Notes under the pieces: generated by a model
What the model saw: only the letters and a program-made list of their open reading frames with translations
Told to the model about the DNA's origin: nothing
Database searches by the model: none
Shown here: piece by piece, positions 17,975-23,835 of the stretch
How positions within the stretch are numbered: position 1 is the first letter of the stretch
Layout of the letters: the number at the start of each line of letters is the position of its first letter
Origin: Bacilli bacterium
Lineage (GTDB): Bacteria > Bacillota_I > Bacilli_A > RF39 > UBA660
Assembly: GCA_017888105.1 (NCBI GenBank)
Contig: JAGHGS010000172.1
Coordinates: forward strand, 1 to 35,452
Direction of reading: 5' to 3'
DNA length: 35,452 nt
Translations under genes and position numbers: made by a program

Positions 17975-19081
17975 TTAAATTCTAATCGTATCACATTTTT
18001 GCGATTTATTTCCAGCATTATCAATTGCCGTTGCACAGAAGGTTCTGCCAGTTGATTCTTGCAAATATAAAACATTAGTGAATACTCTTGATTGAGTTTC
18101 ATGAATTGTTGAACCACTACCATTTTTATAAGGTTCAATCCACATCTGATATTTTTGAATACCAGTTCCATTATCATAAGCATTTATCGTAACACGAATA
18201 TTCCAGCCAGCTGCTGGTCCTTTATCTGGATTATAATATCCTAGGTTTTCAACTGTAAAACTGGTAATTGTAGGTGCAATATTATCATACCAGCTAGGAT
18301 TAATTACCAAATTTCCGTTTACTGTCCAAGTTTGATCTCTAAATGAGGTTACACTATATCCATCTCGATCATAAACATATACTCTAACTTTAGAACCATA
18401 GTTAACAGAGTTATTATAGTAATCGGTAACCCTATTAGCCACTAGAACTCCGTCAATCCAAACCGTAAAAGTAAAACCATTTAACCCAGAAGCATATGAA
18501 ACATTCTGAATAATCGAATTAATATCTACTGAATATTTTTTTGCTTTCCAGTTAGCAGTAAAAGTTTTATTTCCAGTTGAATTAGTTATTGTTAAATTAG
18601 TTGTCGGTGTACTTACACCAGTACCAGTCCAACCAGCAAAATCATATCCAGTCCGAGTAGGAATTGGTAAAGTAAAAGTTTCTTCTATATTGTAACTAGT
18701 TTTAGGATTGCTTAAAGTACCACCATTCAAATTGTACTGAATAGTATAACTTTCTACACCCCAATTAGCATAAAGCAATTGGTTATTAATACTCTCTACA
18801 TTATTAATTGAAGAAGAATATTTAATTTCACCATTCAAAGATGTACTATACCCTAAAAAATCGTATCCACTTTTTATAGGTGTAGGTAAAACAACGTTGT
18901 TATTGTCAATAATAACATTATTTTCATTATACTTTCCACCATTTGGATTTATTTTTAATTGATAATCAATCGTTTTTATATTATTAGTAATAGAATCCAT
19001 TGTTGTAAAAGATGCAAAAGTTGATGATAAAGGTAAAATAATAGCTAGTAAAAGAGATGATATTTTAAGTACTTTTTTCAA
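17975..19081 (-). CDS. secreted repeat protein (Listeria-Bacteroides/Flg_new-type repeats) with SipW-type signal peptide
   Basis: Start reassigned to TTG 19081 (MKKVLKISSLLLAIILPLSS), which follows a GAGGG RBS. The signal end TFASFTTMDSITNN resembles that of the TasA-like protein. Repeats are marked by GYDFLGYS and GYDFAGWTG. Confidence 0.6.
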   Translation of the reverse strand: MKKVLKISSLLLAIILPLSSTFASFTTMDSITNNIKTIDYQLKINPNGGKYNENNVIIDNNNVVLPTPIKSGYDFLGYSTSLNGEIKYSSSINNVESINNQLLYANWGVESYTIQYNLNGGTLSNPKTSYNIEETFTLPIPTRTGYDFAGWTGTGVSTPTTNLTITNSTGNKTFTANWKAKKYSVDINSIIQNVSYASGLNGFTFTVWIDGVLVANRVTDYYNNSVNYGSKVRVYVYDRDGYSVTSFRDQTWTVNGNLVINPSWYDNIAPTITSFTVENLGYYNPDKGPAAGWNIRVTINAYDNGTGIQKYQMWIEPYKNGSGSTIHETQSRVFTNVLYLQESTGRTFCATAIDNAGNKSQKCDTIRI

Positions 19082-19568
19082 ATTTTGCGCCCTCTTTCTT
19101 TTTATGTTGTTTATAAATATCATTACATATATCTACGACAATTAAGCCTAAACTGATGTAAAGAAGATATTTATGATTGTATATGAAATCAGCATAATAC
19201 CCAATATATGGTATTGACCAATTTGTTCCTTTACCAAGCACTTGATTCTCATTTACTAAGTTTGGATCAAATGTATTATTTGCATCTCCCTTAGTTACAA
19301 AATTTAAGTCAATTATATCGATGATACGATGAGATATAATATGATCTTTTGTTTTATAAACTAAAATATCTCCATCTTTTAAATCATTTAAATCCACTTC
19401 TTCATAATATAGAATTCCACCTACCTTCAAAATTGGCTCCATAGATCCTGACATTACAACTAAGGGTTTTGAACCCCACAAACACGGAATATAAATAACT
19501 AAATAAATGATAACAAAAAAGTAAATTACACCAAAAATTATATTTTTAATCTTTAATAACATAATCAT
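19065..19568 (-). CDS. sipW: SipW-type (ER/archaeal-type) signal peptidase I
   Basis: N-terminal TM segment, then the catalytic motif MSGSMEP, plus SHRI and TKGDANN motifs as in Bacillus SipW. Confidence 0.8.
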   Translation of the reverse strand: MIMLLKIKNIIFGVIYFFVIIYLVIYIPCLWGSKPLVVMSGSMEPILKVGGILYYEEVDLNDLKDGDILVYKTKDHIISHRIIDIIDLNFVTKGDANNTFDPNLVNENQVLGKGTNWSIPYIGYYADFIYNHKYLLYISLGLIVVDICNDIYKQHKKKEGAKFEKST

Positions 19569-20864: not shown

Positions 20865-23835
20865 AAATACTAGTTCCGATTCCCATTAATACTAAAATTC
20901 CTCCTAATATATATGTTAAGTCCTTTGTAGCAGTTTTCGGAACTTCAATTTCTCGACTATTAGTTACAACAATTTCGATAACTTGATATTGTTCTGTAAT
21001 TTCAAAGTCATATCTTTGATTATTTAAAACATATCCATCAAGAGATTCTATCTCTTTTAAGTAATACTTACCAAAATCTAATGTGATTTCAATATAACCA
21101 TTTTCATCAGTTATATATTCACCAACTAATCGATTATTAATATCATATAAAGCAAATTTTACTCCTGCTAATGGATTCCCAGATTCATCAGTTTTTAATA
21201 ATTTAATTGTGCCATTTATTTTATCATTTTCCATTTCTACTTCAACCACTTCATCATTACTTGTTATTTCAAAATAAATTTTATTGGCATTTAAAATATA
21301 ACCTTCATTGGTTCCAACTTCTAAAATGTAATATCTTCCAATCGGAATAGAATCAATTATAAGAAGTCCATCACTATTAGTTTTACCTTGATGGATAAGT
21401 TCATCATTTTCATTATAAATTTCAAATTCTACATTTGACATAGCCTTTCCAGTATTTGCATCTACTTTCAAAAGTTCTAATGTTCCTTTTTTCAAATAGT
21501 TAACAATTTCTATCTTTTCAGTTACTATTTGGGTGTATTGATCTTGATAAGTTAAATTGATTTCATAAACAGTTTCATTTAAAACATATCCATCTAATGT
21601 TTCAATTTCCTTTAAATAATACTTGCCAAGATTACCTTCAAAAGTACCATAACCTTGTTCATTTGTAGTTATATATTGAATTAAATTCCAATTTTCATCA
21701 TATAAAGCAAAGGTAATATCTTTTAGTGGAATCTTATTATATTCTATTCCATTTTCAAATGATACTTCTTCACCATACTTAAATATTTCTATTCTGCCTT
21801 TAACTGGAGTATTTTCAAATTCTAATTCTACAATAGCTCCAAATGAATCATCATAGATAATATTATCTGCACTAATATAAAATTCTAAAGGTTTACTATT
21901 CCATAAATACCCTTCTAATTCTTGATCTAATTCCTCCAATTGATAATGACCTGCTGTAAGTGATAGAGGAGTAATCAATATACCATCTGCATTTGTTTCA
22001 AATACGCATTGTTCTTTATCAGTTACTTGACATATATATTCATCCGTATCAAGATTTTTAATCTTAAATTTTATTCCTGCAAGTGGAATAATCTCACCTG
22101 TATTACTATCGATTTTAGTAACTTTTATCTTAGCTTTCAGTAATTCATTATTAACAATTTTTTCGACATTACCATTTCTCATATCAATAGTAAAACAATC
22201 TGCTAACAAAGTACCAGAATCTCCTGAAGTTTGACATACACGATAAATACCATAATCAAGAGTTATGCTTGCTTTTCCACTTTCATTTGTTTTAATTGTA
22301 GCAACTTTTTCATTTGTACTTAATAGATAAATATCAAATGTAGCATTAGCTTCTGTTTCAATTACTCCTGAACTGCCATCACCCATAGTTTTGATTAAAG
22401 AAAAATCAAATTTAATAACTGGTTCTGTTGAGGTAATTTTTATTGTTTCCCCGTTATTTGAAATACTGAATTCATATTTATTTGGATCTAGTTCATGTCC
22501 TTCACTTGGTGCAATTTCCTTAACATAATAGTTTCCATATTTAAGTCCTTCATATCTAGCAACACCATCCGCATCTGTTTCAATTTTTGTTATGAGATTA
22601 TCACTCATATCATAAATTCCATAGATAGCATTTTCTAAAGAAGCATCAGTTGCTTGAGATGAAGAAATCTTTTGTAATTCTATATTGCCAGTTATCAGTT
22701 TATTTTGAAAATTCAACTTAATATCATAATTAGATGTTGTGATTGAAAAATTATAGACAGTTGAATCTAAAATATATCCTACTGGTGAACTTACTTCGCG
22801 TATTGTATAATTTCCTACAGCTAAATTTTTACAAGTTCCTTTTCCTGCTCCATCAGTTATAATAGTACATACTTCGGAATTACTAGAATTATATACTTTG
22901 AAAGTAGCTCCAGTTAGACCACTTCCGTTTTCACTTGTTTTAGTGATTTCTAAATTACCCCCACTTATAGTACCAAACACACTTGCTGGAATAGGATCTA
23001 TATCCCCAATAGTAACTTGATTTTGCGAATCCTCACTAATTGCAAAGAGCATTGATTTTCCATAAGGATTCGTTTTTTTAGATAAATTGACACTTAATTT
23101 TCCTGTCCCAGTTGCTGTAATCACTAAACTATTTCCACTAATTGTTGCGTTACAATTTGTACAACTACTAACTTGGAAGGTTGACAAGATATTATTAGTA
23201 TCGTATAACGTAGTACTTTCACCTAAATTCAGCTGAATTTCCTCACGATTAAAAGACGGAAGCAAATAGTGATTGTCCACTAACTTTTGAATTTCAGTCA
23301 TTTCATCAGCAACACCAGCCTGTTCATCAGTAATTGCCTTACAATTATTGACGGTACAGTTAGAATCCGTAAAAACTTGGTTAGGATCAACAACTCGCCA
23401 AATTAACATTTGGGTTGCAATTCTATATTCATTAGTATTATGTCCATCATAACCATATCCATAAAAAGCATATAATTTTATTAGATCAAGCTGACTTTGA
23501 TTAATTTTATTAGCATTGTTTGATGTGTTATTATTAATGATATTAATTAAATCATAATCACTTTGAGAATAAGTTATATACGACGCTCTATTACTAAATG
23601 TTGCTCCTGGCTCTATGCAGAACGAACTGTCCCCATTTGAAGTGGACCAAAAAGCCATTTGCCCATAACGAGAATAGTTATTTCCACTTTTATGAGCATG
23701 GAAAAAGCCTGATACATAATTTTGATTAATGGTTATTGTATCAGCTTTAACATTATTGGTACATATTAAAATAGAAAAAAGTGCCATAATCATTAAAGGC
23801 ACTTTTTTCAAAAATAATTTTATTTTTCTATTCAT
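20836..23835 (-). CDS. cell-wall-anchored adhesin: putative N-terminal thioester domain + ~7 CnaB/SpaA-type repeats + sorting signal
   Basis: Signal peptide, then FCIEPG (Cys73) and ATQMLIW (Gln142), which resemble thioester-domain Cys/TQxxIW motifs. Seven repeats of the type G(A/I)xFx(I/L/V)Y...G.Y...E...GY follow. The C-terminus is VPKTA + hydrophobic helix + KKKKN. Confidence 0.7.
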   Translation of the reverse strand: MNRKIKLFLKKVPLMIMALFSILICTNNVKADTITINQNYVSGFFHAHKSGNNYSRYGQMAFWSTSNGDSSFCIEPGATFSNRASYITYSQSDYDLINIINNNTSNNANKINQSQLDLIKLYAFYGYGYDGHNTNEYRIATQMLIWRVVDPNQVFTDSNCTVNNCKAITDEQAGVADEMTEIQKLVDNHYLLPSFNREEIQLNLGESTTLYDTNNILSTFQVSSCTNCNATISGNSLVITATGTGKLSVNLSKKTNPYGKSMLFAISEDSQNQVTIGDIDPIPASVFGTISGGNLEITKTSENGSGLTGATFKVYNSSNSEVCTIITDGAGKGTCKNLAVGNYTIREVSSPVGYILDSTVYNFSITTSNYDIKLNFQNKLITGNIELQKISSSQATDASLENAIYGIYDMSDNLITKIETDADGVARYEGLKYGNYYVKEIAPSEGHELDPNKYEFSISNNGETIKITSTEPVIKFDFSLIKTMGDGSSGVIETEANATFDIYLLSTNEKVATIKTNESGKASITLDYGIYRVCQTSGDSGTLLADCFTIDMRNGNVEKIVNNELLKAKIKVTKIDSNTGEIIPLAGIKFKIKNLDTDEYICQVTDKEQCVFETNADGILITPLSLTAGHYQLEELDQELEGYLWNSKPLEFYISADNIIYDDSFGAIVELEFENTPVKGRIEIFKYGEEVSFENGIEYNKIPLKDITFALYDENWNLIQYITTNEQGYGTFEGNLGKYYLKEIETLDGYVLNETVYEINLTYQDQYTQIVTEKIEIVNYLKKGTLELLKVDANTGKAMSNVEFEIYNENDELIHQGKTNSDGLLIIDSIPIGRYYILEVGTNEGYILNANKIYFEITSNDEVVEVEMENDKINGTIKLLKTDESGNPLAGVKFALYDINNRLVGEYITDENGYIEITLDFGKYYLKEIESLDGYVLNNQRYDFEITEQYQVIEIVVTNSREIEVPKTATKDLTYILGGILVLMGIGTSIYGFVKKKKN

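Follow-up and report, generated by a model that had tools for sequence, protein, structure and literature searches.

Little is understood of how Gram-positive donors find and hold their recipients, above all in liquid and in the gut. A 35,452-nucleotide contig of an uncultured Bacilli bacterium (JAGHGS010000172.1, analysed whole and called the window below) bears on this question. Five consecutive genes between positions 17975 and 23835, set among genes for a type IV secretion system (T4SS), encode a thioester adhesin, a sortase, a BsaA-family predicted fibre subunit, a SipW-type signal peptidase and a Flg_new-repeat protein. Do they form one apparatus, and does it serve conjugation? The initial annotation took them for a single module that combines two surface-assembly routes. 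The gene identities and the two secretion and anchoring routes hold, and all five open reading frames (ORFs) lie on the minus strand at the coordinates first reported. However, the five genes are two separable units, an adhesin with its sortase and an optional fibre triad, and sibling elements lack the triad. On balance, we lean towards an explanation in which a covalent adhesin and a donor-strand fibre cassette jointly serve mating-pair contact, a role that we infer from gene order.

Two surface units among transfer genes

The evidence for two units comes from a converse survey, in which metagenome contigs were scanned with a VirB4 alignment. The four backbones closest to that of the window (L049, L050, L051 and L052, with VirB4 identities of 65-66% and 38-40%) have the adhesin gene, with or without a sortase gene, and then directly ssb, with no triad. 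The fibre triad is thus dispensable for this T4SS type, which weighs against a part for it in mating. The backbone exists in three states, in which the adhesin gene is followed directly by ssb, by the triad and ssb (L008, L009 and L034), or by the sortase gene, the triad and ssb, as in the window. It is because of these three states that we describe the five genes as two separable units. Since the siblings join the adhesin gene directly to ssb, the adhesin-ssb junction can be regarded as a variable slot for surface modules.

The triad, defined as a BsaA-like subunit, a SipW and a Flg_new protein, was surveyed starting from subunit homologues. Metagenomes hold 479 of these, the top 120 all at least 63% identical, and a scan limited to one genome per species gave 43 loci, nearly all from gut or rumen metagenome-assembled genomes (MAGs) labelled 'Bacilli bacterium'. 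All ORFs of the survey loci were clustered, and recurrent flanking families were identified with Pfam. The order subunit, SipW, Flg_new is intact in 36 of 36 species-representative loci (subunit identity at least 58%). Conjugation markers flank the triad in 33 of the 36, namely VirB4, a VirB6-like protein, the type IV coupling protein (T4CP, PF02534), a MobA/VirD2 or MobL relaxase, DUF3801 and a giant SNF2 helicase. Of the other three loci, two are contigs shorter than 4 kb and one is L036, a 20-kb chromosomal-looking locus with an ABC transporter, a glycosyltransferase and an AMP-binding enzyme as neighbours. An adhesin with a thioester domain (TED) is encoded immediately 5' of the triad at 22 of the 36 loci; the sortase gene lies between adhesin and subunit genes at 18, follows the Flg_new gene at one (L033) and is absent from four.

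At least four backbone layouts surround the triad. The first, that of the window, runs adhesin, sortase, triad, ssb, VirB6, VirB4, M23; the second VirB4, M23, p487 (a 487-residue protein discussed below), T4CP, triad; the third giant SNF2 helicase, triad, MobA relaxase, DUF3801, T4CP; and the fourth VirB4, M23, MobL, triad, T4CP. Median pairwise identity falls from 66.5% for the subunit through 62% for SipW and 46% for the Flg_new protein to 39% for the adhesin. Subunit identity follows VirB4 identity weakly (rho = 0.25), and even among pairs whose VirB4 proteins are less than 50% identical, the subunits have a median identity of 68%. To judge from these sequences, the gradient fits a constrained structural subunit, variable binders and exchange of the cassette between backbones.

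Some MAGs hold two or three separate copies of the triad on different conjugative backbones (L018, L032 and L038 in CAKOSN01; L013 and L041 in JAGALD01; L020 and L024 in JAUNSN01), and one 54-kb contig has two of them. A single genome can therefore host several such elements.

Is the triad part of the transfer machinery, or is it carried along? It could be ordinary biofilm-matrix cargo that benefits the host through pellicles or aggregates and stress tolerance, any effect on transfer being indirect. BsaA is a biofilm matrix fibre in Clostridium perfringens (PMC7395162), and subunit homologues of 36-46% identity (L042-L048) lie in classic clusters of sipW with two bsaA paralogues, without a Flg_new gene or a T4SS. 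One such sipW-bsaA cargo cluster sits on an Enterococcus megaplasmid with no adjacent T4SS genes; it is one of the two weak Enterococcus matches that a tblastn search of plasmids with the subunit returned, a search that gave no example on a cultured plasmid. (A near-identity DNA search of PLSDB with the 7.2-kb region found no match.) The triad-less backbones closest to the window and the two chromosomal-looking triad loci also favour cargo. It is harder to reconcile with the position of the triad within the transfer module itself, between the adhesin gene and ssb, virB6 and virB4, between relaxase and T4CP genes, or just 5' of relaxase, DUF3801 and T4CP genes. There the triad is co-directional with the transfer genes and joined to them by overlaps or very short gaps. 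Recruitment into at least four backbones and pairing with a mating-type TIE adhesin at 22 of 36 loci likewise argue against mere cargo, which we consider rather unlikely.

Several features of the survey count against the explanation that we favour, in which both units serve mating-pair contact. Seeded by subunit homologues, the survey measures conjugation context given the triad and not the reverse. Every organism involved is an uncultured MAG. Finally, no conjugation gene lies within 10 kb of the triad at L001-L003 and at L036, which look chromosomal. The initial annotation had named occurrence independent of T4SS loci in relatives as an argument against its proposal of a conjugation-linked surface apparatus. 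Such occurrence is seen at these loci, and the proposal stands in so far as the triad lies among T4SS, relaxase and coupling-protein genes at 33 of 36 loci; it does not stand in so far as the triad is optional and two loci look chromosomal. At the metagenome loci L001-L003, the triad lies alone beside murein-synthesis genes.

Genes for an 814-residue Peptidase_C1/lectin-like protein and a 560-residue cadherin-like protein lie 5' of this T4SS-free triad (5259-9754 in L001-L003). These proteins may be alternative surface partners that replace the TED adhesin.

The predicted fibre subunit, its SipW-type peptidase and the Flg_new protein

The predicted fibre subunit has 199 residues (19602..20201, minus strand), a SipW-type signal in which GGTLA would precede the cleavage site and YFTTSDSITNNFET follow it, and a predicted beta-sandwich core. 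The initial annotation called it TasA-like. Family models bear this out in part: TIGR04090, the BsaA family model of NCBIfam, scores 120.7 bits (cutoff 60), and the SipW-cognate signal model TIGR04088 scores 25.4 bits (cutoff 19). However, Pfam Peptidase_M73 stayed below its gathering score (19.7 against 22.5, over residues 6-77 only), and no sequence or fold match to TasA was recovered. A precomputed PF12389 match is on record for many close homologues of the subunit. The label 'TasA-like' is best read as a suggestion made by the BsaA family model and the literature.

TasA assembles by donor-strand exchange (PMC9674648), and TapA primes it by donating its own N-terminus (PMC10151520). In BsaA, the donor strand that enters the next monomer consists of residues 28-38, with V33 and F37 buried and N35 joined to K74 by an isopeptide bond; the N-terminal segment of monomers is described as disordered (PMC11580942). 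In the window subunit, the invariant or near-invariant motif I34-x-N36-x-F38 mirrors V33-x-N35-x-F37 of BsaA. The AlphaFold2 (AF2) model has a predicted local distance difference test score (pLDDT) of 75.5, with 85-96 in the core and less than 50 for residues 1-38. An N-terminus of low confidence in the monomer model, combined with the alternating I34/N36/F38 motif, is what a donor strand would be expected to give. E49 is invariant and K65 at least 90% conserved, and both are candidate isopeptide residues, although they cannot be aligned to E56 and K74 of BsaA. By analogy, the subunit is predicted to form filaments and may, like the BsaA subset, have an intermolecular Asn-Lys isopeptide bond with a catalytic Glu.

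The second link to donor-strand assembly is the Flg_new-repeat protein (368 residues, 17975..19081, minus strand), which matches Pfam Flg_new at 3.7e-15. Its SipW-type signal would be cleaved between STFA and SFTTMDSITNNIKT, with a tyrosine further on; a donor-strand-like N-terminus and four Ig-like or beta domains follow. We take the TTG at 19081 as the true start because an AAGAGGG ribosome-binding site lies 8 nt upstream, homologues have an MKK consensus and independent gene calls agree. A profile built from 42 columns of the subunit N-terminus, covering the hydrophobic region, the cleavage region and the first ~20 mature residues, was run against 1126 ORFs, all those of the window and of 48 loci. 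Apart from the subunits, it retrieved only Flg_new proteins, always at their N-termini. Specifically, 37 of 43 Flg_new proteins scored E < 0.01 and that of the window 1.5e-5, while the next family reached E = 0.11. This specificity agrees with the earlier prediction that the Flg_new protein is a second SipW substrate.

The conserved columns common to the two proteins are T-x-A at the cleavage site, two aromatics, T, a hydrophobic residue, N-x-F, T and Y. Column conservation is alike through Y34 and diverges completely where the bodies begin. The common mature N-terminus is about 17 residues long and corresponds to the donor strand of BsaA and TasA. The AF2 model of the Flg_new protein has an overall pLDDT of 88.8, with averages of 52-61 for the first four blocks of 10 residues and a confident four-domain Ig-like rod; Foldseek matches of this body are generic Ig-like adhesin rods. 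With a gene adjoining sipW, a subunit-like mature N-terminus and then an unrelated, complete fold, the protein has the features of a donor-strand mimic. Neither Pfam nor NCBIfam gave a TapA match, and any likeness to TapA would be functional only. From its sequence, we predict a minor fibre component that acts as a TapA-like initiator or as a tip adhesin.

The peptidase gene lies between the two (19065..19568, minus strand), and its likely start is the second ATG, at 19562, which gives 165 residues. As first annotated, the protein is a SipW-type signal peptidase I, that is, of the ER/archaeal, Ser-His type. TIGR02228 matches at 98.1 bits (cutoff 51.85, E = 4.7e-28), and SGSMEP (Ser42), SHRI (His80) and KGD (Asp95) are present in the translation; the bacterial-type model TIGR02227 gives 24.8 bits against a cutoff of 47. 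Because the Bacillus SipW equivalog model NF046067 reaches only 77.2 bits against 190, we regard the protein as of SipW type but not as an orthologue of Bacillus SipW. Its gene overlaps the Flg_new gene by 17 nt, and the adhesin and sortase genes overlap by 29 nt. Both overlaps had been noted (19065/19081 and 20836/20864), and both are real and recur at homologous loci.

The reported hairpin between the subunit gene and sipW is also there. It lies at 19581..19599 (minus strand), 3' of the subunit stop codon and 5' of the sipW ribosome-binding site; its perfect 8-bp stem (AAGAGATT/AATCTCTT) encloses a 3-nt loop, and the window spacer folds at -6.0 kcal/mol (z = -2.25). Among 23 distinct homologous spacers of at least 25 nt, 18 have stem-loops with z < -2 against shuffles (median -3.55). 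The stem-loops are unrelated in sequence, and some have U-tracts. A stem-loop after the subunit gene is typical of a major subunit that is needed in excess.

Set against a fibre of the TasA or BsaA kind are the following results. A Foldseek search of the PDB with the subunit returned nothing at E <= 1e-3, and TasA was not recovered; the top match is the Ena2A fibre subunit (E = 4e-3, TM-score 0.21-0.33). A profile search of PDB sequences with the subunit was negative and also failed to recover TasA. The Glu and Lys partners of the BsaA isopeptide bond are unmapped on the subunit, only the Asn mapping by simple offset. TIGR04088 matches just 2 of 27 Flg_new homologues (best E = 0.0089) and not the window protein, and the signal link between Flg_new protein and subunit is therefore family-specific. 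The window hairpin is weak and has no U-tract.

Could the peptidase serve the secretion system rather than a fibre? In RP4, the S26-like TraF processes the TrbC pilin. By the same token, SipW might mature a T4SS component, for which the candidate is a VirB2-like, T4SS pilin-family membrane protein of 133 residues (16506..16907, minus strand; precomputed PF18895 T4SS_pilin match, weak PF04956 TrbC match). An S26-family peptidase and a PF18895/TrbC-like protein do share the operon. But SipW always lies between two proteins with cognate signals, even at loci without a T4SS, triad-less backbones keep the pilin-like gene without a SipW, and the BsaA N-terminal profile misses the 133-residue protein. 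We regard this alternative as very improbable indeed, and continue with SipW as the peptidase of the fibre cassette.

The triad is like the Bacillus subtilis tapA-sipW-tasA operon in being a three-gene kit with a beta-sandwich major subunit, a dedicated SipW-type peptidase and a minor protein that mimics the donor strand; in both, the peptidase gene overlaps the minor-protein gene. It differs in its order (subunit, sipW, minor protein), in a subunit that has no detectable sequence or Foldseek match to TasA, and in a minor protein that, unlike TapA, is a multidomain Flg_new/Ig-like rod. Furthermore, tapA-sipW-tasA belongs to a chromosomal biofilm regulon, whereas the window cassette lies inside conjugation modules. 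With the C. perfringens sipW-bsaA-bsaB-bsaC operon it shares a TIGR04090 subunit, a SipW-dependent signal, the hydrophobic-x-N-x-F motif and an N-terminus disordered in the model. Unlike that operon, the window has a donor-strand Flg_new protein in place of BsaB and BsaC (vWA) partners. Equivalents of BsaA E56 and K74 are not assignable, so that isopeptide locking is only a candidate property, and the triad is found in a setting of conjugation genes instead of one of type IV pilus or biofilm regulation.

Adhesin, sortase and a possible role in mating-pair contact

The adhesin (999 residues, 20836..23835, minus strand) has a signal peptide, a TED, seven SpaA/CnaB-type domains, an EVPKTA sorting signal, a transmembrane segment and a basic tail. 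Pfam TED matches at 27.9 bits (cutoff 22) and SpaA (PF17802) over seven stretches (6.7e-107). The thioester/CnaB architecture with a VPKTA signal was recognised at the outset, and the FCIE (Cys73) and TQMLIW (Gln) motifs and the C-terminal EVPKTA, transmembrane segment and KKKKN tail can be read directly in the translation. The best PDB sequence matches are BaTIE (6FWV, 9e-31) and the TED of SaTIE (6FX6, 5.8e-8); the latter comes from the N-terminal 290 residues, with IATQMLIW aligned identically. Because of the 6FWV and 6FX6 matches, we assign the protein, from its sequence, to the class II TED adhesins of TIE type. Of 21 homologues, 20 have [YF]C[IVL][EQ] and 18 have TQxx[IL]W, and a thioester bond between Cys73 and the Gln is predicted. 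The sorting signal is the variant EVP[NKDI]T instead of LPXTG, followed by a transmembrane segment and a basic tail, and is kept in homologues.

A terminator-like stem-loop of 10 pairs with a T-run lies immediately 3' of the stop codon of the adhesin gene and within the beginning of the sortase ORF (window 20808-20830, minus strand), and resembles the hairpin 3' of the subunit gene. A terminator scan of the window gave 5 sites against 1.7 expected, a count that is not significant, and none at the 19581-19599 hairpin.

The sortase had also been correctly identified. It has 213 residues (20223..20864, minus strand), the HSG His and the LTTC Cys, and matches PF04203 at 7.7e-17 over the full length of the model. 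LAAHSG and LTTC are kept across 19 homologues. The conserved catalytic Arg after the Cys was not located; the consensus there is TC-x(3-4)-TNKQIV with an invariant Gln, and PDB alignments end at the Cys. None of the curated class models (A-F) reaches its cutoff, the best being the LPxTATN-specific SrtD (66.5 against 140) and class C (65.3 against 160).

The family as a whole, in the window and in homologues from L004-L040, keeps the HSG His and the TLITC Cys and has no conserved Arg after the Cys. On these sequences, it may represent a lineage of sortases not yet classified, with specificity for EVPxT signals.

Does the sortase tie the two units into one organelle? Its acceptor for the VPxT TIE adhesin could be the BsaA-type fibre or the Flg_new protein instead of peptidoglycan, and the five genes would then give a single adhesin-decorated pilus in which donor-strand exchange and sortase chemistry are combined. 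The closest solved or curated relatives of the sortase include pilus-assembly class C sortases, its gene lies between those of adhesin and subunit at 18 loci and after the Flg_new gene at L033, and the subunit has invariant or near-invariant Lys residues. Yet the enzyme falls below every class cutoff and the adhesin homologues have no YPK(N) motif. Four triad loci have an adhesin without a sortase, and siblings have adhesin and sortase without the triad. Since each unit occurs without the partner genes of the other, the two are taken to work independently, and we judge a composite organelle improbable.

The adhesin was also considered as a sortase-polymerised pilin in its own right, and this was rejected: the YPK pilin motif is found in 0 of 21 homologues.

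What the sequences show are the identities and motifs of the genes, the N-terminal segment common to subunit and Flg_new protein, and a conserved, optional triad embedded in conjugation modules. For the two-unit explanation, we infer a series of steps that includes SipW cleavage, polymerisation, an end position for the Flg_new protein, attenuation at the hairpin and any effect on transfer. Both surface units would be co-transcribed with the T4SS from one operon-head promoter. The dedicated sortase would anchor the adhesin to the cell wall through its variant EVPxT signal, while the Sec route would export the subunit and the SipW-type peptidase of the same cassette would cleave it. The freed N-terminal strand of the subunit (YFTTSDSITNNF) would then insert into the next subunit by donor-strand exchange, as in TasA and BsaA. 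The Flg_new protein may plug the free acceptor groove at one end of the fibre; because it has the donor strand and lacks a BsaA-type body, it could fill one end only. It would act as a TapA-like nucleator and stay as a single-copy end piece displaying its Ig-like/Flg_new rod, probably as an adhesive tip. If the fibre grows from the membrane, as BsaA membrane anchoring suggests, this end piece would be the distal tip. The stem-loop would keep subunit mRNA above that of SipW and the minor protein. Expressed, as they would be, from the transfer operon, fibre and covalent adhesin could capture and hold recipients in gut contents, by mating-pair formation or by aggregation.

A bolder version of this explanation, which we hold only tentatively, is that of a true Gram-positive mating fibre: a donor-strand pilus of TasA/BsaA type, processed by SipW and primed or tipped by the Flg_new protein, working with the thioester adhesin. 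If it were true, such a fibre would take the functional place of the conjugative pilus, a structure that T4SSs of Gram-positive bacteria are believed not to possess.

How much of this is already known? The adhesin-sortase half is. Mating of pLS20 in liquid depends on TIEpLS20 (pLS20 p34), a class II TED protein from a conjugation operon of a Gram-positive plasmid (PMC8092201). The window adhesin has the TED and CnaB/SpaA stalk of the TIE proteins (pLS20 p34, BaTIE, SaTIE, EfmTIE86) and, as in pLS20, is encoded early in a Gram-positive conjugation operon. In contrast to the pLS20 TIE, which has no sorting signal and no sortase, it has an EVPxT signal and an overlapping sortase gene, and unlike the TIE systems it is coupled to a fibre cassette. 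Like PrgB of pCF10, it is a surface protein encoded in a transfer operon, and PrgB-type adhesins promote contact between donor and recipient; unlike PrgB, it has no polymer-adhesin domain, and the window adds a predicted polymerising fibre system. According to a 2025 review of T4SSs, Gram-positive systems use wall-anchored adhesins and encode no conjugative pili, and none of those reviewed is described with a polymerising fibre system (PMC12857230).

BsaA and TasA genes near sortase, SpaA and LPxTG genes have been observed before, with no mention of conjugation there. Our literature search, partial in its journal coverage, found nothing that links SipW, TasA, BsaA or camelysin to conjugation, and likewise nothing on pCW3 srtD/cnaC. 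The conserved triad, the Flg_new donor-strand mimic and their repeated recruitment into conjugation modules appear undescribed. The view of the initial annotation that this was not a described T4SS accessory system accordingly needs narrowing: the triad in conjugation does appear undescribed, but thioester adhesins with sortases at conjugation loci are known (PMC8092201).

A conserved fibre cassette that many uncultured gut Bacilli have in their transfer modules, through repeated recruitment, is a testable candidate for a long-range contact organelle. The Flg_new protein, as a natural TapA-like donor-strand mimic fused to an adhesin rod, would extend the TasA/BsaA principle to heteropolymeric, tipped fibres.

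Operon setting and neighbouring genes

The window has about 25% G+C, and its minus strand carries nearly all of the genes. A promoter-like site (TTGACA-17-TATTAT, 25513..25541, minus strand) matches the consensus at 11 of 12 positions at the operon head, 5' of genes for putative regulators of 156 and 80 residues. It is identified by this consensus match only, and promoter-like sites are common in this AT-rich window (84 found, 65.5 expected). The five surface genes do lie between ssb and these operon-head regulators, as first annotated, but not alone: the gene of a 245-residue membrane-anchored protein with an acidic linker (23884..24621, minus strand) intervenes directly upstream of the adhesin gene, and its homologues precede the adhesin in L006 and L033.

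Past the Flg_new gene, after a gap of 35 nt, the first gene is ssb (17571..17939, minus strand; PF00436), co-directional with the module. The genes that follow in the same direction encode the VirB2-like protein, a 554-residue polytopic membrane protein in the VirB6 position (14845..16509, minus strand), a VirB4-type T4SS ATPase of 814 residues (12112..14556, minus strand), an M23 peptidoglycan hydrolase that is a VirB1 analogue (11082..12143, minus strand), a methylase, a primase and a probable MobL-like relaxase. The L004 homologue of the VirB6-position protein has DUF8208, and the protein co-occurs with VirB4 in related loci. VirB4, the VirB6-position protein, the VirB2-like protein and a cell-wall hydrolase, all co-directional with the surface module, make up a Gram-positive T4SS operon. 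The 133-residue membrane protein, encoded 5' of the VirB6-position gene, is in itself an example of a VirB2-like component in a Gram-positive T4SS.

The 487-residue protein p487 (977..2440, minus strand) is a probable distant MobL-type relaxase. A Pfam search of p487 itself was negative, and the indirect link is through L052, in which one stretch matches both p487 (37%) and a Pfam-confirmed MobL relaxase. No T4CP gene lies in the window; in L051 it is found ~3.7 kb beyond the p487 homologue, which would place it off the left end of the window. Scans of the window for Rfam families and tRNAs returned nothing.

An identical VirB4 protein turns up in 128 blocks of the assembly collection, for which reason we consider the element common. 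Because the exact VirB4 is seen in many metagenome assemblies, the surface module may influence gene flow in gut communities. In an otherwise identical copy of the element, L078, an IS240-type transposase has inserted 3' of the primase region (19811-21241); the element is therefore evolving within populations.

Gene callers give no support, in identical contigs, to an 83-residue ORF (window 17932-18183, minus strand) that overlaps the Flg_new gene at its 3' end in a different frame; this ORF is probably spurious. Upstream of the operon head (window 25779-29371) are genes for a 515-residue NUDIX-domain protein, a radical-SAM protein and a LysR regulator, families that recur in 4, 4 and 5 sequences, the window included; this cluster may be cargo or have a part in regulation. 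At the far end of the element (window 31585-34333), the plus strand carries three paralogous genes of Xre-type helix-turn-helix proteins, possibly repressors or immunity-like regulators.

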